64,000 bases of DNA, from NCBI GenBank assembly GCA_964543265.1, contig CAZIWN010000001.1, forward strand, positions 168,644-232,643. The letters are read 5' to 3'. This document shows positions 1-64,000 of the stretch, piece after piece. A program made the translations under genes and the position numbers. The DNA comes from an uncultured Candidatus Saccharibacteria bacterium. Its GTDB lineage: Bacteria > Patescibacteriota > Minisyncoccia > UBA6257 > 1-14-0-10-40-38. Under the pieces are notes generated by a model. It was not told where the DNA came from. It did no database searches and worked only from the letters and a program-made list of their open reading frames with translations. Numbering within the stretch: position 1 is the stretch's first letter; every line of letters starts with the position of its first letter.

Positions 1-15
1 TTAAATTCTCTCGCA

Positions 16-219
16 TCACTTCGTCGATGTGCTCTCTCCAACAGCCCCAGTCGCTTTTTTACCAGAAAGAGCATTGCCGTTCCCATTTGTTTTGCGCACT
101 CCCCTGCGTGGATCAGGCTTTTTCTTATTACTGATCCAAATCATCACCCCCACCAACGCTCCACAAACCAAAAGCGTGACCAAGAGCCCCGTCAAAGAGT
201 TTTCGGCCAAGAGATTCAT
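16..219 (-). CDS. GC-rich minicassette A: 67-aa small protein with one predicted TM helix (MNLLAENSLTGLLVTLLVCGALVGVMIW...)
   Basis: On the minus strand, TTGACA (RC of 288-293) then AAGGAGA then ATG at 219; GC-rich coding in an AT-rich background; window edge prevents seeing a terminator. Confidence 0.4.
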   Translation of the reverse strand: MNLLAENSLTGLLVTLLVCGALVGVMIWISNKKKPDPRRGVRKTNGNGNALSGKKATGAVGESTSTK

Positions 220-304
220 TGGTTTCTTTCTCCTTAAAGAACGAAGTTTCGGAACTAAATAAAAAAATACTCTTTCCTATTTAATATGTCAATTTCCATT
301 TTGA

Positions 305-1105
305 TTGTTAATTATTATTACTTATACTTTCTCTTATATGTTTTACGAATCATCTGATGTTTTTAAAAAAGAAGCCGGGCATGAAATTGATGGTGTTTGG
401 TATCCTCGTGTTACTAAAATTTTAGAAATAAAATCAAAACCAGCTTTATATAAATATTATGCAGAAGCTCCTAGCTTTGCGGTTGCGGAAGAAAGAACCA
501 AAAAATCAGCCGAAGAAGGGACATTAATTCACGAAGCTGTAGAAAAAATATTTGTGGGTGAAAAACCGCAAATTACAGACTCGATATCACCCGCCATTTC
601 AGCAGTTGAAGATTTTTTGTCAAAAAATAATTTTCAAGTAGAACGTGATCATGTTGAGAGAAAAGTTTTAAATAAAGAAGAAGCTTATTCTGGAACAATA
701 GACGCCATGGCTATTATAGATGGGAAATTCGGGGTTTTAGATATAAAAACATCTCAGTCTATATATAGAGACTATAATCTCCAAACCGCGGCTTATATGG
801 GTCAATTAACTAAAGAATTTCCACATTTAGAAACCAGATGGATTATGCGCGTTGATCAACAAAAAAACTGCTTAAGGTGCGGTGCCACATTAAGATCAAA
901 AGGAGGGAATGACAAAATTAAGTCTAAAGCTTTTAATTCACAAATTTGTGAAGAAAATAATCACGAATGGTCTCCTCTTAAGGGAATAGTTGAACTCAAG
1001 GAATTTCCATTTTGGAAAAGCGACTATAAGGCATTTTTAGCTGCCAAATATTTATGGCAATGGGAAAATGAATATATGCTTCGTAAAATAGGATATTTGA
1101 AATAA
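305..1105 (+). CDS. PD-(D/E)XK nuclease, RecB/Cas4-like, with C-terminal Cys cluster; true start may be the later Met (MFYESS...)
   Basis: Motifs GTIDAMAIIDGKFGVLDIKTS (D..D/E-x-K) and QTAAY (QxxxY), typical of RecB-family nucleases; a CxxC..C insert near the C-terminus. Confidence 0.55.
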   Translation: MLIIITYTFSYMFYESSDVFKKEAGHEIDGVWYPRVTKILEIKSKPALYKYYAEAPSFAVAEERTKKSAEEGTLIHEAVEKIFVGEKPQITDSISPAISAVEDFLSKNNFQVERDHVERKVLNKEEAYSGTIDAMAIIDGKFGVLDIKTSQSIYRDYNLQTAAYMGQLTKEFPHLETRWIMRVDQQKNCLRCGATLRSKGGNDKIKSKAFNSQICEENNHEWSPLKGIVELKEFPFWKSDYKAFLAAKYLWQWENEYMLRKIGYLK

Positions 1106-1375
1106 AAAAAACCGGGATCAAGAAGTGATGGCGGTAGTCTGTGGAGTTTGCGACGCAAGCTCCGACATCAGACCAAACCACTTCCCGTCCCAGTTGCGGA
1201 TCAAAAAAGAAAACAAAGAGGGGTGAGAGGCGAATCATGGATCCAGCCGGTGCCAATGGCGGATCAAGAGGAATCCATCGCCATGCTTTTTCCCGTGTGC
1301 CCGCGCCAGTCTTATCGATTCGTCCCGCAGAAGAAGCCCAAGCGGTTCACCTCCCACCCCTCTCGAGAACTAAGT
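1105..1375 (-). ncRNA. Candidate structured sRNA B: 14-bp closing helix (plus arms 1217-1230 / 1350-1363) followed by a U-rich tract; no convincing ORF
   Basis: On the minus strand 5' AGAGGGGUGGGAGG pairs with 3' CCUCUCACCCCUCU with one G.U wobble, which would be an A.C mismatch on the plus strand; minus-strand promoter-like TTCTTA-17-TATTAA near 1380-1410; GC-rich island. Confidence 0.3.
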
Positions 1376-1431
1376 TAATAGTAGCACATCATTTTAATAA
1401 GAAAAGTTAATAAACTTAAATTATAAATAAA

Positions 1432-1630
1432 AAAATCAGCCCATCGAGATTTCTCTTTGGGCTGTTGCTGGAAAAAAGCGGAGGCGGGACTCTTGTCCTC
1501 CCAACTTGTTGGGACAGAAGAAGTGCGCGTCGCGAGCGGTTTTCTCTTTCCCGGACATTGCGGCAGGTCGAGGTCGTCGGTTTCTCCCTTGTCGAGGTTT
1601 GAACGGCGAAAAAAGTCCCGCCTCCAGTAA
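1432..1630 (-). ncRNA. Candidate structured sRNA C (6S-like architecture?): perfect 11-bp closing helix 1480-1490 / 1615-1625 plus intrinsic terminator 1432-1470 on the minus strand
   Basis: GGAGGCGGGAC...GUCCCGCCUCC inverted repeat enclosing about 124 nt of GC-rich sequence with internal hairpins; minus-strand TTGAAA-17-TAATAT promoter near 1635-1665; hairpin CAGCCCA..UGGGCUG followed by U7. Confidence 0.35.
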
Positions 1631-1674
1631 GATGATATTACAACTAATTAAAATATTTTTCAACAATCAAAAAA

Positions 1675-2983: not shown

Positions 2984-2995
2984 TTATATAAAAAT

Positions 2996-5460: not shown

Positions 5461-5500
5461 AAAACACCCTCTCGTCCGCATGAACGAGGGGTGTTTTGTT
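5461..5500. terminator. Bidirectional intrinsic terminator between convergent genes
   Basis: ACACCCUCUCGUCCGCAUGAACGAGGGGUGU hairpin flanked by A-run and U-run. Confidence 0.6.
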
Positions 5501-6250
5501 TCATCGAGATTTTTGAGGCATTGCCTCCACCATTCTTCGAACCAACACTGGGTCAAGCTCTGTGTGAGACTTACTAACTCCCGTAGCAACGAGAAAGATA
5601 TCTGCATTCGGAAGAAATAAGTGTACATTTTCTGGAGTAATACCACTAGCGATAGCTAGTGCATGATCCCTAATTGCCTCTCTCATTACACGGATTTTTT
5701 CTGGATCCGGTGGTGATCCGGTTGCATCTCCGCTAGTAGTGATTACTTCCATAAATGGCATAGCAAGCTTGGCGACGCGAGTCAGATCTCTAACTGGAGC
5801 CTGATGCTTGAAGGCCACGCCTCCAAAAATCAGCGGCAGTCCAGGAACTCCTCCTCCTTTGATTGCCATATTAGCTCTTGCAATTCTGCAAGGATCTTCA
5901 TCATCTTCGCGAACGCCGCCATCATCAATCCAAACAGCAAAGATGTTGTGCGTTACTGCTAATCGAACCGCATCTTCACCCGAAAGATCCAGGAAGTTAA
6001 CTCCAATCTCCAATCCCTGCCCTTGGCCCTTCGATGCCCTAAACTCTTTTCTGACAGCAAAGAAATGTTGCAGAAGAGCTGCGTGCATCATCCCGTGGCC
6101 AATTAGAAAGACGCACTTCACGCCAGCATCAAAGGCAATTCTCACGTTTCTCATCACTTGTTGTCTATTCTCTGCGTGGATCACAATAGCCAATATATGG
6201 TTCGTTTGAGTTCCATTTCTTAAGCAGAAAGTTGCTCTGGGAAAAATCAT
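5501..6250 (-). CDS. BtpA/SgcQ-family TIM-barrel protein; GC-rich (about 55%) foreign-looking gene with its own promoter and RBS
   Basis: IGVNFLDLSG and ASGITPENV blocks resemble the BtpA/SgcQ family; minus-strand TTGATT-17-TATATT promoter, AGGAGG RBS then ATG at 6250; GC-rich codons unlike its neighbours. Confidence 0.55.
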   Translation of the reverse strand: MIFPRATFCLRNGTQTNHILAIVIHAENRQQVMRNVRIAFDAGVKCVFLIGHGMMHAALLQHFFAVRKEFRASKGQGQGLEIGVNFLDLSGEDAVRLAVTHNIFAVWIDDGGVREDDEDPCRIARANMAIKGGGVPGLPLIFGGVAFKHQAPVRDLTRVAKLAMPFMEVITTSGDATGSPPDPEKIRVMREAIRDHALAIASGITPENVHLFLPNADIFLVATGVSKSHTELDPVLVRRMVEAMPQKSR

Positions 6251-6331
6251 ATTTAGCTTACGCCTCCTGTGTTTGTTTTTGTTTGTGCTAATTAAAATAT
6301 ATCAACTCTTAAAACTAAATCAATAGAAAAA

Positions 6332-8186: not shown

Positions 8187-8858
8187 ATGAAAAATAATTT
8201 AACTCCCAACCAAAAAAAGGTTTTAGAATTTATCTCCGCTTATATTAAAACCAATAGTGAATCCCCCACAATTCAAGAAATTCAAGAAAAGTTAAAACTT
8301 TCCTCTTCCCGATCAGTCACTCAATATTTAGAAAGTTTAATTAAAAAAGGATTAGTTGATAAAGCAAGATATAAAAGCAGAGGGATTTCTCTCATCGGCA
8401 AGAATAAAAAAGAAAAAGACACCATAATGCTTCCAGTTTTTGCTTCTGCTGGCTGCGGTAGTCCATCGATCATCGCTCAAAGGACTTTTGATGACTTTGT
8501 AGAAGTTAGTTCCAGCATCGTCAAAGGAAAAAAGAAAGAAAATTTATATGTCATCAAAGCCGTCGGCAATTCCATGAATATGGCTGGTATTAACGACGGA
8601 GATTATGTTTTAGTAGAAAGAATGCCAGATCAAGCCTTTAGTATGGGAGATTCTGTGGTTGCAATTATTGATGACAACGCAGTCATCAAAAAATACGTCC
8701 AATCAAACGATTTAATTGTCTTGCAACCAGCCTCCTCCGATAGCTCCCATAGACCAATCATCTTAGACAGTAAAGCAACCTATAAAATCTTCGGAAAAGT
8801 CTTAAGAACCATCCGCATGCCAAAAGTTGGAGATCTAAGATATGTTCCGGTAATATAA
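8187..8858 (+). CDS. lexA: LexA repressor (S24 peptidase)
   Basis: N-terminal wHTH; Ala-Gly autocleavage site (ASAGCG); catalytic Ser in GNSMNMAGI and Lys in VIKKY. Confidence 0.9.
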   Translation: MKNNLTPNQKKVLEFISAYIKTNSESPTIQEIQEKLKLSSSRSVTQYLESLIKKGLVDKARYKSRGISLIGKNKKEKDTIMLPVFASAGCGSPSIIAQRTFDDFVEVSSSIVKGKKKENLYVIKAVGNSMNMAGINDGDYVLVERMPDQAFSMGDSVVAIIDDNAVIKKYVQSNDLIVLQPASSDSSHRPIILDSKATYKIFGKVLRTIRMPKVGDLRYVPVI

Positions 8859-8897
8859 AATATATTTGACAAAAACTATATGATTATAATATAATAA

Positions 8898-8951
8898 AAT
8901 GGAGTTGATCGAGGATTTACTAGTTTTTACCACAAGAAACGCTCGTTTCTG
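8898..8951 (+). CDS. 17-aa leader-like uORF (MELIEDLLVFTTRNARFW) in GC-rich minicassette F
   Basis: Starts about 10 nt after TTGACA (8865-8870) / TAATAT promoter; followed by a GGAAU..AUUCC hairpin and then the Cys-rich ORF; speculative. Confidence 0.2.
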
Positions 8952-9006
8952 GTGAAGACAGGAATATCCTCACATTCCGCTAAGCGCGGAAAGAAAGGCT
9001 CGTAAG

Positions 9007-9111
9007 ATGAATCTCTTCGGCAAGTCTCGTTTCGACCTGGTCGCCTCCATCTGCTCCGACTGCGTCAAGGGCGACCACTGCGGCGGTTGCAACTGCTGCA
9101 AGCATCGCTGA
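9007..9111 (+). CDS. 34-aa cysteine-rich peptide (MNLFGKSRFDLVASICSDCVKGDHCGGCNCCKHR), GC-rich minicassette F immediately downstream of lexA
   Basis: Upstream promoter with TTGACA at 8865-8870; a 17-aa leader-like uORF (8898-8951) lies between promoter and this ORF; RBS-like AAAGAAAGG; 7 Cys in 34 residues; terminator hairpin UAGCCAACUU..AAGUUGGCUA at 9118-9150; below the ORF-track length cutoff. Confidence 0.4.
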   Translation: MNLFGKSRFDLVASICSDCVKGDHCGGCNCCKHR

Positions 9112-9164
9112 GATCAAATAGCCAACTTTCATTAGCAGTGGAAGTTGGCTACAATTTTATTAAA

Positions 9165-9608
9165 ATGAAAAACAAAATAGATAAAAAAATAAAACCTACC
9201 GTTTTTATTCTGAATAAGTTAGACATAAAAACTACTGGCTCTTGCGAAGGGCATATTTCTTATGGTTCGCCTTGTCCATGGATAAAAATTTCAGAATCAA
9301 TTGATAATAATTTAAAAAAAGAAACGATTAAATTAATAAAAGAATTTTATAAAAATAAAAAAATAAATAAGAATATAAATCTAAAATTAAAGGATGGAAA
9401 ATCCGGATTTTGGCTTTATACTGGCCCTAAAAAAGATTTTGAAAATTGGCGAAAATTAGTTGATAAAACCGCAAAAACTATTTCCAAAGGTAAAACTCCG
9501 GAAAAATATATGATATCTGAAAAGGAAAAGGGATTTAGAAAAATTAATTTATTAAAATATCAGCAAGAAATAAAAGAATTTACAAAATTTTTAAAGACTA
9601 AAATCTAG
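9165..9608 (+). CDS. Hypothetical Lys-rich protein (track ORF 9087 has an upstream extension; probable start MKNKIDKK)
   Basis: AT-rich host-type codons begin at 9165; the upstream part of the track ORF is GC-rich terminator sequence of cassette F. Confidence 0.4.
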   Translation: MKNKIDKKIKPTVFILNKLDIKTTGSCEGHISYGSPCPWIKISESIDNNLKKETIKLIKEFYKNKKINKNINLKLKDGKSGFWLYTGPKKDFENWRKLVDKTAKTISKGKTPEKYMISEKEKGFRKINLLKYQQEIKEFTKFLKTKI

Positions 9609-11119: not shown

Positions 11120-11175
11120 ATATAAAAGAAAATGGCCCGAGGAGTTGCTACCGTAGTAGCAGCCCCCAGGGCCAT
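11120..11175 (-). terminator. Compound intrinsic terminator of the GC-rich 154-aa gene
   Basis: Minus-strand AUGGCCC...GGGCCAU stem with inner GCUGCUAC..GUAGCAAC, followed by UUUUCUUUU. Confidence 0.5.
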
Positions 11176-11196
11176 TCATTGTTCTGCGGTTGTAGT

Positions 11197-11661
11197 TCAG
11201 GCGACCGCGAGCGCCTTGGCGAGAGCTGCACCGAGCGACCCACGGTGGATGCGATCCACCGAAGCCACGGCGGCCCTCAAATCACCGACCGGCATGTCCG
11301 GCCTGGAGACGATCTGCGCCCTGCGAACCGGCGCGACCACCTTCGGACGTTTGGGCTGCGCGACAGGGGCCGCCTTCAGGATCCGAAGCGGGCTCACCAC
11401 GAGGATGAAAACCCTCTTCATCACGTAGGCACCGATGATGTTGAGGCTCTGCACCTCCCACATCTCGCCCGCCTTCGGCTGGTAGGTGGCACCACGGTCG
11501 ATGACGACCTCGGCGACCCATCCGTCGGAGAGGTCCTCGAGTCGGCCCTTCAGCTGCGGCCCGCCCAGCGTGGTGTTGGTCCCGACGAAGAACGTGACCG
11601 CGAACCGCGGCGGCGTGATGTTCCGAATCGCCCGGTCGAGACGCGCATCGAGAAACGCCAT
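11197..11661 (-). CDS. GC-rich minicassette G: 154-aa hypothetical protein with Ala/Pro/Arg-rich C-terminus
   Basis: Minus-strand TTGACA-18-TATAAT promoter (plus 11736-11765), RBS GAGAGGG, own terminator; antisense ORFs in this island look like low-complexity junk. Confidence 0.4.
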   Translation of the reverse strand: MAFLDARLDRAIRNITPPRFAVTFFVGTNTTLGGPQLKGRLEDLSDGWVAEVVIDRGATYQPKAGEMWEVQSLNIIGAYVMKRVFILVVSPLRILKAAPVAQPKRPKVVAPVRRAQIVSRPDMPVGDLRAAVASVDRIHRGSLGAALAKALAVA

Positions 11662-11871
11662 CGGTATACCCTCTCGAAATCCTTCATTCCCTCAAGCGCC
11701 ATCTTGCGACAGCAGAAACTCAAGGTACTTCCTATATTATATCATAATATATCTATATTTGTCAATAGATATACAAATAACCCTTAATTTTAATGATTTT
11801 ATCAACTATTGACTTATATATTAATTATTGCTATAATTAGGAACAGAACAAGGTCAAAAAAGGAGAACGTC

Positions 11872-12090
11872 ATGATTCACTGGTTCCAGGTCTGCGACGT
11901 CGTGGAGGCACTTCTAGACATCACCACTCCCGGTTTTGGCAACGAAGGCACCACGATTTTCAAGGGAACACGGGGAATCGTGGAAAAAATTCTCCGTTCA
12001 GAAGGCAACCTCAGGGTTTCCTGGGAGTTGGGATCAAGTCAGACCATCAGCTTCGTCGTTGCTGAAGCTGGGGTCAAAGCAATCGGCTAG
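11872..12090 (+). CDS. GC-rich minicassette H: 73-aa hypothetical protein, divergent from G
   Basis: TTGACT (11809-11814)-17-TATAAT (11832-11837), RBS AAAGGAGAA, ATG 11872; compound terminator AGCGCCGC..GCGGCGCU + U-rich at 12094-12160. Confidence 0.45.
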   Translation: MIHWFQVCDVVEALLDITTPGFGNEGTTIFKGTRGIVEKILRSEGNLRVSWELGSSQTISFVVAEAGVKAIG

Positions 12091-12152
12091 TAAGAGACTA
12101 GCCGCCGCCAATAAGCGCCGCAAGTTCGAGCATATCGAACAAGCGGCGCTTT

Positions 12153-18947: not shown

Positions 18948-18980
18948 TAAAAACTCCGATTTAAATCGGAGTTTTTATTT
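18948..18980 (+). terminator. Intrinsic terminator of the helicase gene
   Basis: AAACUCCGAUUUAAAUCGGAGUUUUUAUUUU. Confidence 0.6.
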
Positions 18981-19049
18981 TGACACCATGAAATTCTTAT
19001 TGATAGAATTAATTAAGCACACAACCCAAAAGAGACAAAGGAGAAAGAA

Positions 19050-19232
19050 GTGGACTTGGAAAGACTGTCGATCGGAGAACTGCAAGATGTTCTAGTAAGG
19101 CGCCTCAAGAGAATAGTATGGAGCCTTACAAAAGAAAAACTCATCGAAGAAATCGGTGGACTTGGAAAAGAAGAGTCGGTTCTGAAACAATTTGAATCCA
19201 AAACCGCTCTCGAAGAAGCCCCAGCTGCATAA
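19050..19232 (+). CDS. GC-rich minicassette I: 60-aa helical protein with internal repeat (GTG start)
   Basis: TTGACA (18979-18984)-18-TAGAAT, RBS AAAGGAGA, GTG 19050; terminator GCCCCAGCUGCAUAAGCGGGGC + U-run at 19214-19250; gtggacttggaaa occurs twice. Confidence 0.4.
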   Translation: MDLERLSIGELQDVLVRRLKRIVWSLTKEKLIEEIGGLGKEESVLKQFESKTALEEAPAA

Positions 19233-19267
19233 GCGGGGCTTGTTTTTTATGCTATAATTACAAAAAT

Positions 19268-19631: not shown

Positions 19632-20045
19632 ATGATATTTTCAAAAACACTTATCCTAATTTCATTATTGGGATTAATCAATGCTCTTTACTTAACCTAC
19701 AAACACTACTTCACAAAAAAGCCACTAGTCTGTTTAGTCGGCGAAAATTGCGAAGCAGTTCTTGATAGTAAATGGAGTCACATGTTCGGAGTTAGGAATG
19801 AAATTCTCGGAGTTTTATTTTATGGTGGAATCTTTACCGGATCTTTAATTTTATTTTTCTATCCACTATTAATACCAAATTTATTATTCTATTTATTTAT
19901 AGGAAGCATTACCGGGGTTTTATTTTCTGGATTTTTAGTAGCGCTTCAAAAATTCGTCATTCATAATTTTTGTTTTTATTGTTTAATCTCCGCCGGATTA
20001 AGCCTATTACTTTTCATTAATTGCGCTTACTTATTTTTATATTAA
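19632..20045 (+). CDS. VKOR-family membrane protein (second copy)
   Basis: Loop cysteines CLVGENC and CFYC active site in a TM helix. Confidence 0.55.
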   Translation: MIFSKTLILISLLGLINALYLTYKHYFTKKPLVCLVGENCEAVLDSKWSHMFGVRNEILGVLFYGGIFTGSLILFFYPLLIPNLLFYLFIGSITGVLFSGFLVALQKFVIHNFCFYCLISAGLSLLLFINCAYLFLY

Positions 20046-20067
20046 AAGAGGGGTCCTGATGGACCCC
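20046..20067. terminator. Bidirectional terminator
   Basis: AGAGGGGUCC UGAU GGACCCCUU hairpin shared by the convergent plus-strand VKOR gene and the minus-strand GC-rich operon. Confidence 0.6.
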
Positions 20068-20259
20068 TTATGAGAACTGAAGACGAAGAACCTGAACGAA
20101 CACACATGGATCAAGATGCTTCTTCCTCCTTGCCTTGAGACAGGCTCTAAACCTAGCCTGTCTTTCGGACACAGCAGTCGACTCAACGGTAACAATTTCT
20201 CCGCTGGGACACCTCACGGAAGCGGAGAAGTTGCGCCACACAGCCGGTGCACGCTTCAT
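20068..20259 (-). CDS. GC-rich minicassette J gene 2: 63-aa basic protein (MKRAPAVWRNF...), translationally coupled to gene 1
   Basis: ATGA stop/start overlap at plus 20256-20259; RBS GGGAGGGGAG inside gene 1; the track ORF has a 7-aa upstream extension. Confidence 0.4.
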   Translation of the reverse strand: MKRAPAVWRNFSASVRCPSGEIVTVESTAVSERQARFRACLKARRKKHLDPCVFVQVLRLQFS

Positions 20260-20471
20260 GGAATGAATCTCCCCTCCCAAAGAGCAAACTCTGGGGACCT
20301 AGAGATGACGTCAATCGCCACCCAGTCAGAGCTTGGAACTTCGTTTTCTGTTTTGAATTTCTCCAAAACAAAGACTCTAGCCCATTTTTCAGACGAAGCA
20401 CAAACCCTCACCTTATAAGTGCATCTCCTCCATGAAACAAGGGCAGACCAAGCGACCGATCTTCTGGCCAT
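20256..20471 (-). CDS. GC-rich minicassette J gene 1: 71-aa protein (MARRSVAWSALVSWRRCTYKV...)
   Basis: Minus-strand TTACAT / CATAAT promoter and RBS AAGGAGATGAGG then ATG at 20471; its stop overlaps the next start as ATGA. Confidence 0.4.
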   Translation of the reverse strand: MARRSVAWSALVSWRRCTYKVRVCASSEKWARVFVLEKFKTENEVPSSDWVAIDVISRSPEFALWEGRFIP

Positions 20472-20596
20472 CTTGGACTCCTCATCTCCTTATTGTACTA
20501 ATATAATTATGGCACATGTAAATATATCTCATCAAGATCTTGTTTCTATATAAACAATAGGTATAATCTTAGTATTAATTTAAAAAATAAAACCAA

Positions 20597-41625: not shown

Positions 41626-41633
41626 TTTGAAAT

Positions 41634-42131
41634 CTATTCGCCCATCACCTCAAGACGATCGAACAGAGACTTGAACCAAGAGAGAGCACCAACTTTTCTT
41701 GCAACCCTATTACCCATACCAGGGCGCATCTGACAAAAAGAGACAGCAAAAGCAATAGTTATTGCAGAGTCTATCTCGGGAGAAATCCCAACAAAGGCCA
41801 CAACGAGTCCACTATGACTCACAGCTCGGGATTCCGCGGGTGGAAGAGCAGCTGAAGATCCAGCGACCCTAACAACCATCTCTCTTGCGACAATACAACT
41901 TCGCGAAGCTGTTGGATTATGAGGAATTGTTCCAATCCTCGCGCAGATAACTTCTTGGCCTGTATCACTATTAGCAAGACAGAAGTATCCGCCACTGACT
42001 TCACCAAGCTTGAATACCCTTCTTGCCTGCTGGAAAATCATGCCAATCCGCGAAACAGCATCTGCAGAATTAGCAACAATAGCGACAGTAGTAGCCCCAT
42101 CTCTCTCAGCGACCATCGTCGGTTGAGACAC
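41634..42131 (-). CDS. GC-rich minicassette N: approximately 166-aa hypothetical protein, possibly Ntn-hydrolase/proteasome(HslV)-like (GATTVAIV after a short propeptide)
   Basis: Minus-strand TTGACC-17-TAATAT promoter abutting the upstream gene stop; RBS AAGGGGAGGA then GTG (42131); the track ORF starts at an upstream TTG; weak similarity to HslV RRV..G..AG..D block. Confidence 0.35.
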   Translation of the reverse strand: MSQPTMVAERDGATTVAIVANSADAVSRIGMIFQQARRVFKLGEVSGGYFCLANSDTGQEVICARIGTIPHNPTASRSCIVAREMVVRVAGSSAALPPAESRAVSHSGLVVAFVGISPEIDSAITIAFAVSFCQMRPGMGNRVARKVGALSWFKSLFDRLEVMGE

Positions 42132-42214
42132 GCCGATCCTCCCCTTTTTGGCAGGTTTTTTGGAAACTTCAAAGAGCTGAAACAATATTAAATTAATAAA
42201 ATAAACTGGTCAAT

Positions 42215-42868: not shown

Positions 42869-42940
42869 TCCGGAGTAGTTCAGTGGTAGAACGCCTCGCT
42901 GTTAACGAGGATGTCGTAGGTTCGATCCCTACCTCCGGAG
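42869..42940 (+). tRNA. tRNA-Asn (anticodon GUU)
   Basis: Acceptor UCCGGAG/CUCCGGA, anticodon stem CCUCG/CGAGG with loop CUGUUAA, T arm GUAGG-UUCGAUC-CCUAC; the 3' end is the target of a downstream repeat array. Confidence 0.9.
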
Positions 42941-43064
42941 CAAAAATAAAATACCCCTTCTGGGGTTGTTTTATTTTTGTTTTGAAATGGATCGAACCGA
43001 AGGTCAAAATCACGCAGTGATGAGATTTCGACTGAAAGGAGAAGCGATCCCTACCTCCGGAGCC
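42936..43064 (+). repeat. Direct repeat copy 1 (129 bp): tRNA-Asn 3' end + terminator (ACCCCUUCUGGGGU + Us) + 65-bp spacer + 21-bp tRNA-3'-end mimic gcgatccctacctccggagcc
   Basis: Identical by eye to 43503-43631; the mimic recapitulates ttcgatccctacctccggagca of the tRNA (att-like). Confidence 0.75.
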
Positions 43065-43146
43065 GATATTTGACAATAATATAACAGTATGCTATTATCC
43101 AGATAGTTCCGAAAGTTAAAAATCGAGCAGGAAAGCGAGGTTAGAA

Positions 43147-43320
43147 ATGGATACGCAAAAACTCGTGGAACTCGTACGCCAATGCACAAAAATCGTCGTT
43201 AGAGAAGGGCAGAATACCACTGGCGATATGTCCGCTGTGATTCCCTTGCTACAAGCTGCGCTGAGAGATTTGCCCTCCGATCAGGTCCAGAAGGCCATTC
43301 TCGAATACAACAATGATTAA
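43147..43320 (+). CDS. Cassette O: 57-aa hypothetical protein (MDTQKLVELVRQCTKIVVREGQNTTGDMSAVIPLLQAALRDLPSDQVQKAILEYNND)
   Basis: TTGACA (43070-43075)-17-TATTAT (43093-43098), RBS AAAGCGAGG, ATG 43147; dual-hairpin terminator 43362-43435; GC-rich. Confidence 0.45.
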   Translation: MDTQKLVELVRQCTKIVVREGQNTTGDMSAVIPLLQAALRDLPSDQVQKAILEYNND

Positions 43321-43502
43321 GACAAGTAATACTGCCTAGGAACGTCCTGATATTTCGATATGTGTCGCGCAAAGCGACACGCCCCCCCCCGTTGGAGGAA
43401 TTTCGATGATTTCTCCCGGGGGCTTCGTTTTTTTATCTCAAATCGGGAATATAAATATATTCATTTTGTCGTGCTATAATATTTCTAATATCCGATACTG
43501 TT

Positions 43503-43631
43503 CGGAGCAAAAATAAAATACCCCTTCTGGGGTTGTTTTATTTTTGTTTTGAAATGGATCGAACCGAAGGTCAAAATCACGCAGTGATGAGATTTCGACT
43601 GAAAGGAGAAGCGATCCCTACCTCCGGAGCC
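43503..43631 (+). repeat. Direct repeat copy 2 (129 bp), identical to 42936-43064
   Basis: Same sequence, including the terminator and the 21-bp tRNA 3'-end mimic. Confidence 0.75.
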
Positions 43632-43700
43632 ACTTATTTGACAATATTATTTATATATGATATTCTTTTTATAGAACAATTTCCAACAAGGAGAGAAGAG

Positions 43701-43898
43701 GTGCACCGCTATCTCATTACAATTTCGTTCACGCCCGGTCGAGATGGATCTGAGAGAACGACGGAGTGTTACGAAGTGAGTATGGAGCAGCCGATTCGTT
43801 CCATGGATCAACTCAATGCAGAAATCAGGAAGCTCTGCGATGTAAAAAAGATTGCTGGGCACGTGACCCCGATTGCGTTTTCTCGATTCTCCGAATAA
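43701..43898 (+). CDS. Cassette P: 65-aa hypothetical protein (GTG start; VHRYLITISFTPGRDGSERTTECYEV...)
   Basis: TTGACA (43638-43643) promoter homologous to cassette O, RBS AAGGAGAG, GTG 43701; the track ORF 43533-43898 runs spuriously through the repeat. Confidence 0.4.
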   Translation: MHRYLITISFTPGRDGSERTTECYEVSMEQPIRSMDQLNAEIRKLCDVKKIAGHVTPIAFSRFSE

Positions 43899-43920
43899 CT
43901 CAAACCAGAGGAGACGTCCC

Positions 43921-44094
43921 GTGAATCAGTCCAGCGGACAGGAACCGAAAGTTCAACAGGAAAAGCCGCGACAAGAATTCCCTCCCTGCACCAACAAGGA
44001 ATGCGAGTGCTATGAGTCTTCTGCTCGTGTCGGGCCAGCTGCATCGATCCCGCGCGCCTACTACTGCTACGAGTGCTGCAACATCTTCTTCTGA
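43921..44094 (+). CDS. Cassette Q: 57-aa cysteine-rich peptide (..PPCTNKECECYESSARVGPAASIPRAYYCYECCNIFF)
   Basis: RBS GAGGAG 6 nt before GTG 43921; 7 Cys in the C-terminal 36 residues; terminator 44110-44177 homologous (about 78%) to cassette O terminator. Confidence 0.4.
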   Translation: MNQSSGQEPKVQQEKPRQEFPPCTNKECECYESSARVGPAASIPRAYYCYECCNIFF

Positions 44095-44206
44095 TGCGAA
44101 TTCTAATATATCGCGCAAAGCGCGAAACCCCCGGTTAGAGAAATTTAGATGATTTCTCACGGGGGATTCTTTTTTTGTCTCAAATGTAGTGTGATATTAT
44201 TACAAT

Positions 44207-54325: not shown

Positions 54326-55345
54326 ATGAAAACTTATATATTTCACGTCAAAGGAATGCATTGCAATTCTTGCGTTATCTTAACTGAAAGTGAACTTGGC
54401 TCTATTCCAGAAATATCTAAGGTAAAAGCTTCTCTTGAAAATCTAAGTGTTGAAATTACTGGTGAATTTGGAGATAAGTCTCCAGAAAAAATTGCCGAAG
54501 ATTTAAGCAAAATATTAAAACCTCATGGCTACACCCTATCGATAGAAAAACAAAAAATCCAGATCAAGTGGTCAGATTTCAAAATCGCTTTGCCGATTGC
54601 TATAGGATTTATAGCTCTCTTTATTGTCCTCCAAAAATTAAACATAGTTAATTTAATAACAACTTCAGAAGTTAGTTACGGAACCGCGTTTTTAATAGGG
54701 CTCATCGCCTCAGTTTCAACCTGTATGGCGGTTGTTGGCGGCCTAGTTCTTTCTATATCGGCAAATTTTGCCAAGGAAGGAGATAAAATTCGTCCACAGA
54801 TTTTGTTTCATATTGGAAGATTAATTTCTTTTTTTATTCTTGGGGGAGCAATTGGCATCTTAGGATCTGTTTTTCAGTTTGGTCAAACTGGAACTTTTAT
54901 TCTGAATCTAATAATAGCTTTAGTACTTTTAATTTTAGGTATAAATCTTTTGGAAATTTTCCCTTGGATTAAAAAAATCCAGCCTACAATTCCAAATTTT
55001 ATAGGCAAACGCGCCCATAATATTAAAAACCTAAACCACACCCTTACCCCATTTCTAGTTGGAGTCGCCACATTCTTTCTGCCCTGCGGCTTTACTCAAT
55101 CTATGCAGATATACACTCTCACAACTGGCAGTTTTTGGACTGGAGCCATGACTATGCTTGTGTTTTCTCTGGGAACATTACCAGTTCTCTCTTTATTAAG
55201 TTTCGGATTTGCTGGAATTAATAATAAAACTAAATCTGGAATATTTTTTAAAACTGCTGGAATTGTGATTATATTTTTCGGACTTTTTAATTTAATAAAT
55301 GGCTTAGTCGGACAAGGCATAATACCTCCAATTTTCAGCTTTTAA
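54326..55345 (+). CDS. HMA-domain fused to a polytopic membrane protein (metal-binding permease, DsbD/CcdA-like TM core?)
   Basis: N-terminal GMHCNSCV HMA domain, then about 8 TM helices; possibly translationally coupled (ATAAAATG) to copA. Confidence 0.55.
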   Translation: MKTYIFHVKGMHCNSCVILTESELGSIPEISKVKASLENLSVEITGEFGDKSPEKIAEDLSKILKPHGYTLSIEKQKIQIKWSDFKIALPIAIGFIALFIVLQKLNIVNLITTSEVSYGTAFLIGLIASVSTCMAVVGGLVLSISANFAKEGDKIRPQILFHIGRLISFFILGGAIGILGSVFQFGQTGTFILNLIIALVLLILGINLLEIFPWIKKIQPTIPNFIGKRAHNIKNLNHTLTPFLVGVATFFLPCGFTQSMQIYTLTTGSFWTGAMTMLVFSLGTLPVLSLLSFGFAGINNKTKSGIFFKTAGIVIIFFGLFNLINGLVGQGIIPPIFSF

Positions 55346-57125: not shown

Positions 57126-57315
57126 AAGGATAATTTTGCTTAATTGACATAAATTACCCATTCCTCTATACTTATGACCGAGTATGAGAACGTTCATTTC
57201 CTTCTTATTTCAGTAAATATTTAAGGGAGTGCGTGGATAGGTTTGTCCAATACAAAACTGGCCCAAATCTAATGGTTCGGCTCATGCGATTTATAAATAT
57301 TTTACGAAATAAAGA

Positions 57316-57648
57316 ATGGCAAAAAGATTATATTTCGGAAACCTTTCATGGGACACAACTGATAAGAGTCTCATGGCTGCGTGTTCTGAATTCGGCACCG
57401 TTACTTCAGCGACTGTCATCACTGATAAAATGACTGGCAGATCAAAAGGTTTCGGATTCGTCGAAATGTCATCCGACGCAGAAGCTGATAAAATTATCGC
57501 TTCTATGAACGGAAAAAACTTCGAAGGAAGAGACATCACCGTTAATGAAGCCAGACCAAAAGAAGAGAGACCAGAAGGCGGCTTCGGAGGTGGAAGAGGC
57601 AGAATGGGCGGTGGAATGGGTGGAGGAATGGGAAGAGGAAGATATTAA
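57316..57648 (+). CDS. RRM-type RNA-binding protein with Gly-rich tail
   Basis: RNP2 LYFGNL and RNP1 KGFGFVEM; about 165-nt structured leader. Confidence 0.85.
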   Translation: MAKRLYFGNLSWDTTDKSLMAACSEFGTVTSATVITDKMTGRSKGFGFVEMSSDAEADKIIASMNGKNFEGRDITVNEARPKEERPEGGFGGGRGRMGGGMGGGMGRGRY

Positions 57649-57687
57649 TCTCCGCTTCACAGACCAAAATCTGTTTAAAAAAACAAC

Positions 57688-57712
57688 CCCGATTAATCGG
57701 GGTTGTTTTTTT
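57688..57712 (+). terminator. Intrinsic terminator
   Basis: AACAACCCCGAUUAAUCGGGGUUGUUUUUUU. Confidence 0.6.
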
Positions 57713-57716
57713 ATAT

Positions 57717-61103: not shown

Positions 61104-61147
61104 TTTAATATTGAAAAATATTTTTAAAAAAGCTATAAATATAAATA

Positions 61148-61335
61148 GTCCTTCAAACCAGTTCAGGGAGAATAAGCTTGGGGAAAAGACGGGTTCGCCG
61201 CGAAGCACGAATGTCTGGCATCTGGAAGCGATTCACTTGCAGGCTGATACGGACAATCGCGTGGGCTAGGGTTCGCCCCTAACCAAGCTTCGCAAACCCC
61301 TCTCGCAGCCGAAAGACCTTCGGCTGCTTTTTTTT
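61148..61335 (+). ncRNA. Candidate structured sRNA R: closing helix AAGCUUGGGG...CCCCUAACCAAGCUU, then terminator module
   Basis: TTGAAA-17-TATAAA promoter (61112-61140); no ORF; terminator GCAGCCGAAAGACCUUCGGCUGC + U8 (61292-61335). Confidence 0.3.
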
Positions 61336-61410
61336 ACTTGAAAAATAACTAATATAATGCTAAAAAACATATAGCCCTTCAATTTCATCGCCAACCAGGA
61401 GGAATTCAAA

Positions 61411-61755
61411 TTGACCCAAAAGAAGAAAGGCGGCGAAATTAAAACAATTAAGCCGCTGATGGATCCTCTTACTGATCCCGCAACTGCAGGAATCAGAAGA
61501 CAGATTCAGGTACAGATCCGAAGGCTTCAACAAGGAGACGGCGTCGAGAAAACTGGTCCGAAACAGACCAAGCATAAGTGCGCGACACCTCGTTGCAAGG
61601 GACGCCTCGTCGAAGACATCTGCCATGAGTTCGACCCCACTTCGGGACCACCTATTATCGGTCCCGGCTCCAGATCACAGTTCAACAGAGTTTCTCGTGG
61701 CTTCTACTGCAACACCTGCGGCGTAAAATATCAGTTCCCTCCAAAGAAGAAATGA
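61411..61755 (+). CDS. GC-rich minicassette S: 114-aa basic zinc-ribbon protein (TTG start)
   Basis: RBS CAGGAGGA 7 nt before TTG 61411; C..C(x3)C and C..C pairs; flanked by duplicated terminator module. Confidence 0.4.
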   Translation: MTQKKKGGEIKTIKPLMDPLTDPATAGIRRQIQVQIRRLQQGDGVEKTGPKQTKHKCATPRCKGRLVEDICHEFDPTSGPPIIGPGSRSQFNRVSRGFYCNTCGVKYQFPPKKK

Positions 61756-61769
61756 GCTCTTGCTCATTT

Positions 61770-61812
61770 CGCAAACCCCTCTCGCAGCCGAAAGACCTTC
61801 GGCTGCTTTTTA
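61770..61812 (+). terminator. Second copy of the 45-nt terminator module CGCAAACCCCUCUCGCAGCCGAAAGACCUUCGGCUGCUUUUU
   Basis: Near-identical to 61292-61335. Confidence 0.6.
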
Positions 61813-62496
61813 ATTAATTTTTGGAATTCTTCTCGTGTCTGGATGAAATTCAAGCTCAATATCAGAATAAATTATTCTCGGATCGTGTTTCTCCTCAATT
61901 TTCAGGCCTCTTTCAATTTTTTTAATCTGTAAATTCCTTAATATTTTTTCCAAAAAGTCTCCAGTAAATCCTTTCAATGCAAATTCTAAAAATGATTTTA
62001 TTCTTGAATCTTTTTTATGAATATATCTTAAGTCGGTTTCGTAATTAACTTTATTTATTTCACCCATCCAATCCCTATTTGCTTCAAAAAAATCGGAAAT
62101 TCTTTCTTCGCTTCCAAAAACAGGGACTAAATTTCTATAAAGATTTTTCCAATACTCAAAATATGGAGGCGACAATTTATAAGATTTTTCGGTAACAAAA
62201 TGATTCAAACAAATCTTATCTTTAGCTTCCTCTTTGTGATCCATTTTTCTTCTCCTATAACCAAACACTCCAAAAACTAGAACAGCAAAAAATCTAGCTG
62301 TAAAAATCCTCCCCAACTTCACCCCCACAATACAATCAAAATCAGACGAATCTTTTACCTCCCCATAAGCCATAGATCCAGCCCCTAAAACAAAATCCAC
62401 AAACGGCACAAATCTAAATAATCTGGCCCTATAAATAAATTTATGCCATTTAGTATCATATAAAACCTCATAAAACTGTTTATCCATAAAATTCAA
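61810..62496 (-). CDS. Nucleotidyltransferase-fold (Pol-beta superfamily) protein
   Basis: GSMAYGEVKDSSDFDCIV (GS..D.D) motif. Confidence 0.45.
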   Translation of the reverse strand: MNFMDKQFYEVLYDTKWHKFIYRARLFRFVPFVDFVLGAGSMAYGEVKDSSDFDCIVGVKLGRIFTARFFAVLVFGVFGYRRRKMDHKEEAKDKICLNHFVTEKSYKLSPPYFEYWKNLYRNLVPVFGSEERISDFFEANRDWMGEINKVNYETDLRYIHKKDSRIKSFLEFALKGFTGDFLEKILRNLQIKKIERGLKIEEKHDPRIIYSDIELEFHPDTRRIPKIN

Positions 62497-62638
62497 TCAC
62501 TTTATATAAATAATTTACCAATGAAGCCCCCGCAGGCGATTTTGCTAGGTTTCCGATTTATCGGAAAAAATCGCCGAGGACTAAGTAAAATTTTTCGCGG
62601 GAAAAAATTTTACAGGCTGAAGAGATAAATTATTTTAT

Positions 62639-63694
62639 TTAACCCTCATGTTCCTCAGGTTGGCTTAATAACTCTTGCTCGATTCCCATAGCCGTACCCG
62701 TCACCCTCATAATATCTTTATCAACTTTTCCAAATTCCTTATAAGCAAAATTATATGAATTAACTGCGGTTCCCAAGTGCCCGCCCAATTTTTTCATATA
62801 GGTTTCGTAAGAAATCAGATGACGAGAAAGTTCTTCTATCCTTTTAATGATTAACTTTGCCGATTCTTCAACTTGAAGCGCCTTTAATCCCTGCAAAACT
62901 GTCTGCAAATATGCCAAAAACGTTGTTGGCGACACAATTAATACCTTTTTTTCTCCGGCATACTGGATCATATCCCTTCCGCTTTCTTTATTAGTTCCAA
63001 CCTTATTAATCAACAAATCATAATAAACCGCCTCCGCAGGAATAAACATAAAAGCAAACTCCATTGTTCCCTCTCCTGGTTTTATATATTTAGAAGTTTC
63101 ATCAATTCTGATTTTTAAATCATCTCTAAAAGCAGACTCATATTTATCCTTTTCAACTTGAGATTTTGCCTCTAATAAACGATTATAATTTTCTAAACTA
63201 AATTTAGAATCTATTGGGATTATTTTTTCTTTTACAAAAACAACTGCATCCACAATCACCCCATCTTTAAATTCATACTGCATTTTATAGCTCTGCGGCG
63301 GTAAAACGTTTTTTAAGACAGTTTCCAAATAATATTCACCCAAGATTCCCCTCTGTTTAGGATTTTTTAGAATATCTTGTAAATTTTTCAACTGGTCTGC
63401 AAAATTAACTACTTGTTTTTGTCCTTCATTAACTCGAGTTAATTCTTGGGTAATCTCCTTTATCATTCTCGAGCTTTCTCCAAATTGATTTTGAACCATT
63501 CTAGAATTTTCAGTAAGTTTTGAATCAAGTTTAGAATCTAATCTATTTGCTAATTCACTAATTTGCGATTGAAGCATTAATAATCCCTGATCGTCTTTTT
63601 GATCAGAATTATCGTTTTTTTTCAAATACAAAACAATCATCAAAACCAACCCCGCCAAAAGCAAAACAGACAGAATAATCAAAAATATCTCCAT
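62639..63694 (-). CDS. rmuC: DNA recombination protein RmuC
   Basis: N-terminal TM plus coiled coil and RmuC C-terminal nuclease-like domain. Confidence 0.8.
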   Translation of the reverse strand: MEIFLIILSVLLLAGLVLMIVLYLKKNDNSDQKDDQGLLMLQSQISELANRLDSKLDSKLTENSRMVQNQFGESSRMIKEITQELTRVNEGQKQVVNFADQLKNLQDILKNPKQRGILGEYYLETVLKNVLPPQSYKMQYEFKDGVIVDAVVFVKEKIIPIDSKFSLENYNRLLEAKSQVEKDKYESAFRDDLKIRIDETSKYIKPGEGTMEFAFMFIPAEAVYYDLLINKVGTNKESGRDMIQYAGEKKVLIVSPTTFLAYLQTVLQGLKALQVEESAKLIIKRIEELSRHLISYETYMKKLGGHLGTAVNSYNFAYKEFGKVDKDIMRVTGTAMGIEQELLSQPEEHEG

Positions 63695-63779
63695 ACATAC
63701 ATATTACTTTAAAACCCTTAAAAACAAAAAAGCGCCGTATCCGAATTGGATCGTGCGCCTTTGAAATCATTTGATGCCG

Positions 63780-64000
63780 TAACAACACAAGCAGGTGCCA
63801 CAATGGCCATGCCCCTCAAAACAAAGCCTGCATGGACGAGAACGAATGTGAAACAAGACAAGCAAATGCGCCAAGAGTTTCATTTTTCATTCCCCCTGAA
63901 AAGAATCGAAACGATTCAGATCAGCTCCTCACAGCAAGGACATCCTCCGCAATGCCTGCCCCTCTTCGGGTCACAGTCCGAACAGAAACCGAAGCCAAAA
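63780..64000 (+). other. GC-rich island at the window edge; open reading frame from ATG about 63804 (MAMPLKTKPAWTRTNV...) continues beyond the window
   Basis: Composition switch like the other minicassettes; truncated, so cannot be assessed. Confidence 0.15.

Follow-up and report, generated by a model that had tools for sequence, protein, structure and literature searches.

How does an AT-rich, streamlined bacterial genome come to carry many short GC-rich stretches between its genes, and what do these stretches encode? The question is raised by a 64-kb stretch of contig CAZIWN010000001.1 (34.4% GC), referred to here as the window, from an uncultivated, ultra-small groundwater bacterium of the Patescibacteria (Paceibacteria) with an AT-rich genome. 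The genomes of Patescibacteria are very small and streamlined, and these bacteria rely on other cells. The window is a stretch of housekeeping chromosome from a member of this group, also called the Candidate Phyla Radiation (CPR): it encodes an AddA-type helicase-nuclease, LepA, GroEL/GroES, SHMT, DHFR, PGK, pyruvate kinase, a P-type ATPase, UppP, LexA, RmuC, VKOR, DsbB and a DsbD-like protein. A Lake Baikal 'Candidatus Paceibacterota' metagenome-assembled genome (MAG) encodes a GroEL that is 86% identical to the one in the window, and for Harrisonbacteria, Wolfebacteria and other Patescibacteria MAGs the identity is 74–81%; an exact look-up of the window's GroEL returned no record.

A first-pass annotation, made from the letters of the sequence, had described about 20 GC-rich minicassettes in the window, each a complete expression unit, which it could assign to no described class of element and which it thought might be selfish, alien or engineered. 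The literature that was searched contained no description of this phenomenon in CPR/Patescibacteria. The evidence presented here favours, on balance, the answer that the islands are lineage-specific accessory minigenes of the Paceibacteria chromosome, self-contained units that probably encode orphan small proteins or small RNAs (sRNAs) and that occupy variable slots.

GC-rich islands are discrete intergenic units

A maximal-segment scan of the window returned 31 GC-rich segments, three of which are tRNAs and about eight of which are conserved or low-complexity parts within normal genes (examples are in LepA at 30308, in the P-type ATPase at 53944, an FAD motif at 16640, a proline-rich tail at 27235 and the RGG tail of an RRM protein at 57550). 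The remaining segments give 15 core intergenic units and three marginal ones (c5, c17 and c18). The core units total 5,980 bp, or 9.3% of the window, and have a GC content of 48.7%, their AT-rich promoters counted in, compared with 32.9% elsewhere; the extreme is the segment 11134–11715, at 64.6%. The discrete islands that had been judged by eye are thus real. The GC content of third codon positions (GC3) is 0.36–0.85 in the open reading frames (ORFs) of the units, compared with 0.16–0.33 in ordinary genes of the window and a genomic value of 0.26. A single island caller counts 0.17 strong non-tRNA islands per kb in the window and 0.02 in a set of 37 other AT-rich Patescibacteria loci (589 kb pooled), an eightfold difference.

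The junctions between AT-rich flanks and GC-rich bodies are 100% identical in two independent Logan assemblies (SRR12487045 and DRR736439), in which, as on a 307-kb NCBI contig, a protein of the window is on record, and unit c6 is reproduced in an independent assembly (L081). Because the junctions recur in independent assemblies, the islands are neither chimeric nor engineered. The earlier view that assembly chimerism is unlikely is borne out by these junctions and by diverged relatives with the same architecture, and an engineered origin is excluded by natural divergence across several metagenomes.

Predicted promoters and terminators

Loose promoter-like matches occur across the window no more often than in shuffled sequences. 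Matches at 11 or more of the 12 positions number seven, compared with 2.5 ± 1.1 expected, and perfect matches number two, compared with 0.025 expected; all seven lie directly upstream of a GC-richer small unit. A consensus match of at least 9/12 is present in 13 of the 18 units, while c2, c14 and c15 have no −35/−10 match of that quality and the promoter of c16 lies past the window end. A hairpin followed by a T-run ends 16 of the 18 units; the other two are c8, whose hairpin has a weak T tract, and c1, whose terminator is just left of the window (4830–4870 of L170, from the same strain). A strong Shine-Dalgarno sequence is often present and the units lie on both strands. Each unit is therefore a predicted transcription unit, monocistronic (once bicistronic), with a putative sigma-70-type promoter, a GC-rich body and a putative intrinsic terminator, and in this the first-pass annotation was right.

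The sole recognisable conserved gene behind any of the seven best promoters of the window encodes an RRM-type RNA-binding protein with an RGG-like tail (57316–57648). It has a near-consensus promoter, a 5′ untranslated region (UTR) of ~170 nt and a 17-bp terminator at its end, the whole locus being 57144–57713.

Slots are conserved and their contents vary

GroEL scans of genomes and metagenomes gave ~160 Patescibacteria loci, only one of which (L001, GroEL 86% identical) was close enough for synteny; no cassettes were found in these loci, except c10 in L001. L001 is syntenic over 35.1–42.9 kb of the window. It has c10 (39342–39860, + strand) at the same place, it has 24 bp instead of 674 bp at the site of c11 (41565–42213, − strand), which is absent, and it has different DNA after tRNA-Asn, c12 and c13 not being there. 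A closer relative (L165, 80% nucleotide identity over flank and cassette) has c11 at the same site, co-diverged with its flank. In L084, from Hainich groundwater, the end of addA is followed by 29 nt and then by the promoter and gene of c7 (11125–11765, − strand), and c8 (11809–12152, + strand) is missing. The notion that relatives might have empty sites thus holds for c8 in L084 and for c11, c12 and c13 in L001. A further c7 homologue, in L083, has a different downstream neighbour, which suggests that the c7 unit or its surroundings were rearranged in that lineage.

The locus around the gene for a PD-(D/E)XK protein has six such GC-rich units, counting those left of the window: 4.9–0.2 kb before the window start (L170 3324–4653) the strain carries another two GC-rich orphan genes, for proteins of 232 aa (GC3 0.63) and 179 aa (GC3 0.79) with Sec-type signal peptides. 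In a more distant relative (L167, PD-(D/E)XK protein 68% identical) the slots on both sides of this gene also hold GC-rich units. The downstream slot has four tandem sRNA-like units of the same build as c2–c4, to which they cannot be aligned. The upstream slot has a gene for an 88-aa transmembrane (TM) peptide (63% GC), which resembles c1 only in the TM segment (BLASTP E = 0.001), and a gene for a 180-aa protein with a Sec signal (GC3 0.84), which lies behind a conserved promoter/5′-region block of ~110 nt. This block is 82% identical over 96 nt between L167 and the window strain, where it precedes the 179-aa secreted protein; the latter has no detectable similarity to the 180-aa protein (BLASTP E = 3.4). 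No counterpart of c6 follows lexA in L167. The homologous context of a still more distant relative (L171) has no such islands, which indicates that the phenomenon is clade-specific. Across these relatives the slots are conserved, and what they hold has been kept, has been lost, or has either been replaced or changed past recognition.

Other differences between the loci were noted. The AT-rich pyruvate kinase gene (39881–40894) is absent from the syntenic position in L001, and gene flux is thus not confined to the GC-rich units. L001 has at 1560–2260 an extra gene of ~730 bp, NYN/LabA-like by eye, together with a minimal promoter–hairpin unit, both between the genes for an acylphosphatase and a membrane protein. 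In L083 two extra GC-rich hairpin elements follow the c7 homologue (484–700). Upstream of the GC-rich cluster, L170 (3195–3235) and L167 (8765–8805) share a conserved palindromic motif, TGTCGCAAAAGGTATATTGGGCGACAGGTAATA, and in L171 (~8300–9250) a similar motif ends an AT-rich array of ~8–9 tandem units of ~90 nt (…TTTTACGACGGATTTAATTTGT…CATTTTGTGACAGC…).

Orphan proteins and the question of recent transfer

The islands might be the product of plain, recent horizontal transfer, that is, unameliorated foreign DNA from GC-richer hosts, phages or plasmids, with fortuitous AT-rich flanks acting as promoters. The abrupt change in composition, the codon usage of c7, which is typical of genomes with 65–70% GC, the variable presence of units between relatives and the siting of some of them beside tRNA genes with duplicated tRNA 3′ ends would all fit such an origin, and c5 comes from a widespread enzyme family. 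The promoters, being far above chance and exactly at the unit boundaries, are not what fortuitous flanks would supply, and the searches for donors point the same way. Only three homologues of the c7 protein and two of the c11 protein were found among 5.8 billion proteins, all on contigs with AT-rich visible flanks; c7, c10 and c15 have no relatives among IMG/VR viral contigs, and none of the searched units was found outside its own clade or in phages. A metagenome scan with the 179-aa neighbour of c11 returned nothing. The foreign donors that the word alien implied are thus not seen for these units.

The ten main cassette ORFs have no match in Pfam, PHROGs, NCBIfam or PADLOC, save a sub-threshold match of c5 to BtpA, and eight further ORFs have no credible match in Pfam. 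The units match no known protein family in these scans and, as described below, no housekeeping RNA. AlphaFold models of c7 (predicted local distance difference test, pLDDT, 52) and c11 (pLDDT 59, predicted TM-score 0.54) are of low confidence. The c11 product had been taken for a possible Ntn-hydrolase. Its sequence has no match in Pfam or the PDB, and a search with the model gave 2a2l, 3fpw and 6bws as the best relevant structures (E ~0.1, TM-score 0.4–0.5), a weak and non-significant resemblance to DUF336/GlcG; the protein is better described as a 160-aa orphan.

Selection on the proteins and persistence of GC

The ratio of nonsynonymous to synonymous divergence (dN/dS) is 0.29–0.37 among the three copies of c7 and 0.23 between c11 and its L165 orthologue. 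For c10 and its counterpart in L001, mismatches at the three codon phases number 23, 11 and 44, there is one 21-nt in-frame indel and dN/dS is 0.24. These values, together with the codon-phase pattern of c10, indicate that c7, c10 and c11 are real protein genes. All three have co-diverged with their flanks, at 20–30% nucleotide divergence and under purifying selection, which argues against a recent import.

The base composition of two of them has also persisted. GC3 is 0.85, 0.88 and 0.83 in the three copies of c7, at a pairwise dS of 0.36–0.55, while the adjoining segment of addA has a dS of ~1.5 and a GC3 of 0.22–0.29. For c10, GC3 is 0.66 in the window strain and 0.60 in L001 at a dS of 0.9, and ordinary genes in the same comparison are synonymously saturated (dS 1.6 for GroEL and 2.5 for a neighbouring 68-aa gene). 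The dS of the cassettes is about half that of their flanks or less. On a three-taxon tree, the polarised third-position changes of c7 comprise 24 from G or C to A or T (S>W) and 11 in the opposite direction (W>S); as there are 132 GC-ending and 23 AT-ending sites, the per-site rate of W>S is ~2.6 times that of S>W and the implied equilibrium GC3 is ~0.73. The genomic equilibrium (0.26) would predict ~2 W>S among the 35 changes (P ~3e-6, or ~1e-4 once two possible parsimony errors are discounted). Over all positions of c7, S>W changes number 52 and W>S changes 27, so some erosion of GC is ongoing, as recent transfer would predict. A GC3 of 0.60–0.88 next to flanks with saturated synonymous sites nevertheless indicates that GC-richness is maintained and is not the fading scar of a transfer. 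We conclude provisionally, the samples being small and the methods simple, that the GC-richness of at least c7 and c10, synonymous sites included, appears to be actively maintained. Taken with the co-divergence and the low dN/dS values (0.23–0.37), this leaves recent import rather unlikely as an account of the islands, and to call them alien in that sense is not justified.

Units without a convincing ORF

Five units lack a convincing ORF, in agreement with the at least five ORF-less RNAs reported earlier, though two of them carry plausible short ones. Three lie in tandem on the − strand and precede tRNA-Gln: c2 (1106–1420; ~270 nt, 54% GC, with a 19-bp closing stem and a 3′ hairpin and T-run), c3 (1432–1665; ~197 nt, 55% GC, with a 15-bp closing stem, a promoter at 1663→1635 matching at 9/12 and a terminator) and c4 (1676–1960; ~247 nt, 50% GC, its G-rich 5′ end paired to a C-rich 3′ segment that is followed by the terminator). 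The fourth, c9 (20040–20548, − strand; ~460 nt, 50% GC, terminator 20068→20049), may be a structured RNA or the mRNA of a 71-aa ORF (20256–20471) with a GGAG/GAGGAG Shine-Dalgarno sequence, and c3 has a possible 40-aa ORF (1436–1558). The fifth is c14 (61110–61336, + strand; ~190 nt, 54% GC). Four of the five fold better than every shuffled sequence (z = −3.75 for c2, with 0/200 shuffles as good, −3.66 for c3, −3.51 for c4 and −4.09 for c9), and in each of the four the G-rich 5′ end pairs with a C-rich 3′ segment to form a long closing helix; the fold of c14 is weak (z = −2.0).

In AT-rich genomes, structured non-coding RNAs (ncRNAs) are known to be concentrated in GC-rich intergenic regions, and this is the basis of a discovery approach (PMC6429828, PMC11109978, PMC8723152). 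The window resembles such genomes in having long GC-rich intergenic regions in an AT-rich background, and c2, c3, c4, c9 and c14 resemble such RNAs. The units differ in that most are coding, that they match no described family and that they are free-standing and variable between strains and clades, while the ncRNAs found by that approach are conserved cis-regulators. The islands as a whole might yet be ordinary conserved small genes or housekeeping RNAs (RNase P, SRP, 6S, tmRNA or riboswitches) that are GC-rich through RNA structure; the significant folding of the ORF-less units would be in keeping with this, and one of c2–c4 could be a divergent 6S-like RNA. An Rfam 15 covariance scan, however, found only the three tRNAs in the window, with no match to the islands even at E ≤ 1, and no match to the islands of six related loci at E ≤ 0.1. 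Most units are coding, with codon periodicity and dN/dS below 0.4, and the units were not found in the ~160 related loci and vary among the closest relatives. For the set as a whole this explanation is already largely refuted, and we regard it as extremely unlikely.

Three further ideas about RNA structure were set aside. The seven sRNA-like units (c2–c4 and the four of L167) do not form one RNA family: MAFFT and RNAalifold predicted no pairs, hence no consensus structure, and BLASTN and TBLASTX found no similarity among them. Thermophily as the cause of GC-rich RNAs was dropped, since most units are coding and there are relatives without them. Nor are the mRNAs in general unusually structured; c7 (z = −1.8) and c10 (z = −1.0) are unremarkable, though c6 and c8 are strongly folded.

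The coding and non-coding units might also be stages of one process, in which transcribed GC-rich sRNA genes come first and ORFs then arise in them to give new small proteins. The premise is that GC-rich sRNA bodies are poor in AT-rich stop codons and rich in GGAGG-like stretches and so spawn long ORFs. The two kinds of unit are alike in architecture and occur in the same slots, the GC-rich bodies have long ORFs in several frames, the sRNA-like units have G-rich, Shine-Dalgarno-like 5′ ends, and c3, c9 and c14, with short ORFs of doubtful status, could be intermediates; in addition the core payloads are without exception orphans, and where relatives were searched for, few or none turned up. 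Set against this, none of the coding units was found to have a non-coding orthologue, the sRNA-like units have no detectable common structure, and the profile of c7 (GC3 > GC1 > GC2) is that of an established GC-rich coding gene and not of random GC-rich sequence. Such a cradle would also leave the origin of the GC-rich sRNA genes themselves unexplained, and we consider it quite unlikely.

Repeats and the question of mobility

The clearest trace of rearrangement lies after tRNA-Asn, where two copies of a 129-nt direct repeat, R (42936–43064 and 43503–43631, both + strand), are 100% identical and bracket a 438-bp insert that carries only the 57-aa ORF of c12 (43070–43440, + strand; ORF 43147–43320, promoter 43070–43098 matching at 11/12, terminator 43385–43433). 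Within R lie the final bases of tRNA-Asn, a hairpin that forms a bidirectional terminator, an inverted tRNA-3′-like fragment, TGGATCGAACCGAAGG, and a second tRNA-Asn 3′ end, GATCCCTACCTCCGGAGC, which has three occurrences, inside or beside the 129-nt repeats. As read from the sequence, the R–c12–R layout is what a 567-bp circle would be expected to leave on integration, or what unequal exchange would be expected to leave. One independent Logan contig (L166) has its break precisely at the R repeat.

Two pairs of neighbouring units, whose payloads are unrelated, have a common 3′ module. The terminators of c12 and of c13 (43638–44182, + strand) are 86% identical over 49 nt (43385–43433 and 44128–44176); the 3′ terminator blocks of c14 and c15 (61340–61812, + strand) are 100% identical over 44 nt (61289–61332 and 61768–61811). 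This suggests recombination or duplication of terminator modules.

Dedicated mobile cassettes, whether integron-, MITE- (miniature inverted-repeat transposable element) or satellite-like, with a site-specific recombinase encoded elsewhere in the genome, would account for the exact repeats with a tRNA-Asn 3′ end around c12, which fit Campbell-type integration of the 567-bp circle, for the common 3′ modules of neighbouring units and for unit sizes of 0.2–0.65 kb, like those of integron cassettes. An all-against-all comparison of the units, however, revealed no common ends, palindromic site or attC-like site, only the two neighbour pairs with a common 3′ module; no formal attC covariance model was run. 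No integrase, transposase or tyrosine recombinase was found among the 50 larger ORFs of the window that were scanned, no payload occurs in more than one copy, the units bring their own promoters and are found in both orientations, and the junctions of empty and occupied sites for c8 and c11 show no clear target duplication. Without common ends, a recombinase among the scanned ORFs or multicopy units, the earlier description of selfish mobile cassettes is unsupported, and we judge this explanation very unlikely. An origin by reverse transcription, from a diversity-generating retroelement or a retron, was also dropped, as there are no repeats of the template/variable type and no reverse transcriptase gene; it is further disfavoured by the inclusion of the promoter in the inserted segment in the c8 and c11 comparisons.

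Integron cassettes are similar to the units in size (0.2–0.7 kb), in mostly orphan payloads that include exported and Cys-rich small proteins, in clustered arrays and in content that varies between relatives. They differ in that the units come without IntI (among the same 50 ORFs), attI or attC, have their own promoters and terminators, and are dispersed over the chromosome in both orientations. With tRNA-linked islets and remnants of integrative elements the units share the position of c12 and c13 after tRNA-Asn, with duplicated 3′ ends, and that of c2–c4 before tRNA-Gln; direct repeats of the tRNA 3′ end around an insert, as left by an integrative element at a tRNA gene, are seen for c12 only. 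Unlike such islets, the units are 0.4–0.6 kb, have no integrase and are mostly not adjacent to tRNA genes.

Phage morons as the closest analogue

In anatomy and population behaviour, the best analogy appears to be the phage moron, a concept that is said to come from Hendrix and Juhala and that was overlooked when the units were held to fit no described element class. A moron is defined as an extra gene between conserved neighbours, with its own promoter and factor-independent terminator and with deviant GC content (PMC2920897). The units of the window are likewise inserted between conserved neighbours, have their own promoters and terminators as judged by consensus matches, have a GC content unlike that of their surroundings, occupy hot spots where different genomes hold different units, and would be expressed independently of their neighbours. 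They differ in that their carrier is a cellular housekeeping chromosome, in which no phage genes were seen and whose cassette proteins have no PHROG matches; that their payloads are tiny orphans and sRNAs and not recognisable fitness genes; that no unit was found here in more than one genome class; and that the difference in composition is kept over long divergence and is not a mark of recent arrival.

A bolder version of the idea is that the clade has a second, stably GC-rich class of genes, a chromosomal 'moron system' of conserved promoter/5′-UTR platforms in intergenic hot spots, with interchangeable or hyper-evolving payloads that are secreted, membrane or Cys-rich microproteins and sRNAs; their GC (GC3 up to 0.85) would be held by selection or biased repair and not come from a donor, and the slots would be a cradle in which an otherwise minimal episymbiont genome gains, tries out and exchanges new small genes. 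We offer this as a tentative possibility.

Type I toxin–antitoxin systems offer a partial comparison. The small single-TM peptides of c1 (1–292, − strand) and c18 (31914–32145, + strand) are like type I toxins in being encoded by free-standing transcripts with extensive internal pairing. Neither a gene for an antisense RNA nor an overlapping promoter in convergent orientation was identified, no systematic search having been made, and such systems would cover only two or three units.

Proposed turnover, maintenance and role

Under the favoured reading of the islands as lineage-specific accessory minigenes, the GC-rich bodies would encode fast-evolving orphan small proteins, several of them membrane-anchored or Cys-rich, or structured sRNAs of 190–460 nt. 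The units sit in intergenic slots, often beside tRNA genes or in clusters of two to six, and these slots behave as hot spots: depending on the relative, a slot may be empty, may carry the orthologous unit or may carry one that is built alike but unrelated. Turnover may proceed by ordinary recombination with no dedicated mobility machine, as the 129-nt and 44-nt exact repeats and the tRNA-3′-end fragments suggest. Once resident, a unit would be inherited vertically, with purifying selection on its protein. A candidate force that keeps the GC content high is selection at the mRNA level, acting on how stable or how structured short monocistronic transcripts are within an AU-rich transcriptome; an alternative candidate is GC-biased repair in recombination-prone slots. 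The types of payload and the presence of VKOR, DsbB and DsbD genes in the window suggest a role in cell-surface or extracellular interaction and in regulation in an episymbiotic lifestyle.

Several points weigh against this reading. It leaves the source of the GC-rich DNA unexplained. The comparative support comes from few relatives, with two to three sequences per cassette, and at the distance of L167 a payload that was swapped is indistinguishable from one that diverged beyond recognition. The test for maintenance of GC comprises 35 polarised changes in one gene and a two-taxon argument in another, and both parsimony polarisation and Nei–Gojobori dS are crude under skewed composition. The GC excess is itself uneven, that of c11 and c5 (GC3 0.36–0.38) being mostly a matter of amino-acid composition, and the units may thus not be one class. 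Promoters and terminators were predicted solely by consensus matching, a good −35/−10 match is missing in three core units (c2, c14 and c15), and the structure predictions are of low confidence (pLDDT 52 for c7 and 59 for c11).

If the reading is true, the orphan microproteins and sRNAs, self-expressed, densely spaced and specific to the clade, would form a concrete candidate for the layer through which Patescibacteria interact with hosts and innovate; several of the proteins are membrane-bound or Cys-rich, secreted ones are encoded just upstream, and VKOR, DsbB and DsbD lie alongside. The persistence of GC-rich codon usage in a genome with a GC3 of 0.26 is unusual, as a deviant composition is usually interpreted as a passing trace of transfer. 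If confirmed, it would allow the action of selection or biased repair on the base composition of single genes to be tested in a natural setting, and would call for caution in detecting horizontal transfer by composition.

Payloads of the individual units

The list of payloads given by the first-pass annotation can largely be kept, apart from the Ntn-hydrolase: it comprised Cys-rich peptides of 34 and 57 aa, to which a 38-aa paralogue is now added, single-TM peptides of 37 and 67 aa, a two-ORF unit and a 114-aa zinc-ribbon-like protein. Unit c6 (8866–9155, + strand) encodes the 34-aa Cys-rich peptide (ORF 9007–9111, GC3 0.83) and has a perfect promoter (8866–8895), a terminator at 9119–9151 and a strongly folded transcript (z = −5.7). 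Its paralogue is the 38-aa Cys-rich peptide of c16 (63715–64000, − strand; ORF 63767–63883, terminator ~63715–63760), whose 5′ part runs off the window end. The two have the common motif C-x2-C-x2-G-x-HCG-x-C-x-CC (E = 2e-4), and no further instance of it was seen in 2.1 Mb of Patescibacteria loci. The bicistronic unit c13 has a promoter at 43638–43666, a first ORF of 65 aa (43701–43898), a second of 57 aa with 7 Cys (43921–44094, GC3 0.64) and a terminator at 44128–44176. Genes for extracytoplasmic disulfide formation or isomerisation were noted at 2177–2983 (VKOR), 28732–29292 (DsbB) and 54326–55345 (DsbD/CcdA-like, with an HMA domain), and are consistent with the presence of several Cys-rich small peptides in the window.

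The 67-aa single-TM peptide of c1 (ORF 16–219, MNLLAENSLTGLLVTLLVCGALVGVMIWISNKKK...) is preceded by the promoter TTGACA-17-TATTTT (292→264). The 37-aa peptide is that of the marginal unit c18 (ORF 31976–32089, ~46% GC), which has a promoter at 31914–31942 (11/12) and a terminator. The 105-aa protein of c10 (ORF 39456–39773, 57% GC, GC3 0.66) has a hydrophobic segment near its C-terminus; the unit has a promoter at 39342–39370, an 80-nt 5′ UTR and a terminator at ~39825–39857.

The 154-aa orphan of c7 (ORF 11197–11661, 67% GC, GC3 0.85) has a perfect promoter (11765→11736) and a long terminator hairpin (~11134–11175). Beside it, c8 encodes a 72-aa orphan (ORF 11872–12090) behind a promoter matching at 11/12 (11809–11837) and the Shine-Dalgarno sequence AAGGAG, with its hairpin at ~12113–12150 and a fold z of −5.8. 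In c11 the ORF (41634–42116, 48% GC, GC1/2 0.57/0.51, GC3 0.36) is followed by a terminator, and the promoter (42213→42185) directly adjoins the stop codon of the gene before it. The 114-aa basic protein of c15 (ORF 61411–61755, 50% GC, TTG start) has a CxxC...CxxC zinc-ribbon-like pattern and an AGGAGG Shine-Dalgarno sequence. The marginal unit c17 (18980–19255, + strand) has a 60-aa ORF (19050–19232, 44% GC), a promoter at 18980–19009 (11/12) and a terminator; its architecture is that of the core units and its GC excess is mild (GC3 0.38).

The third marginal unit, c5 (5465–6323, − strand; 46% GC, GC3 0.38), is directly downstream of glyA and carries a 249-aa gene (ORF 5501–6250) of the BtpA/SgcQ-like TIM-barrel family. 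Its earlier identification as BtpA is qualified, in that the matches to Pfam PF03437 (29.1 bits, cut-off 30) and to TIGR00259 of NCBIfam (33.9 bits, cut-off 153) are sub-threshold and confined to the C-terminal 100 residues; the protein does belong to a large family, having 1,556 relatives of similar length, the best ~50% identical. It is of an ordinary enzyme family and not an orphan, and is probably a different case from the other units.

Other features

Several ORFs of the units are absent from the protein collection, and at L167 8848–9564 the recorded gene is one of 238 aa on the + strand, while the − strand holds the 180-aa ORF with the signal peptide. Gene callers seem to mishandle stop-poor GC-rich bodies, such units being largely missed or mis-called. 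Two short GC-richer intergenic elements without Rfam match, each followed by a hairpin and T-run, lie at 34228–34384 on the + strand and at 32150–32290 on the − strand, the latter 3′ of uppP.

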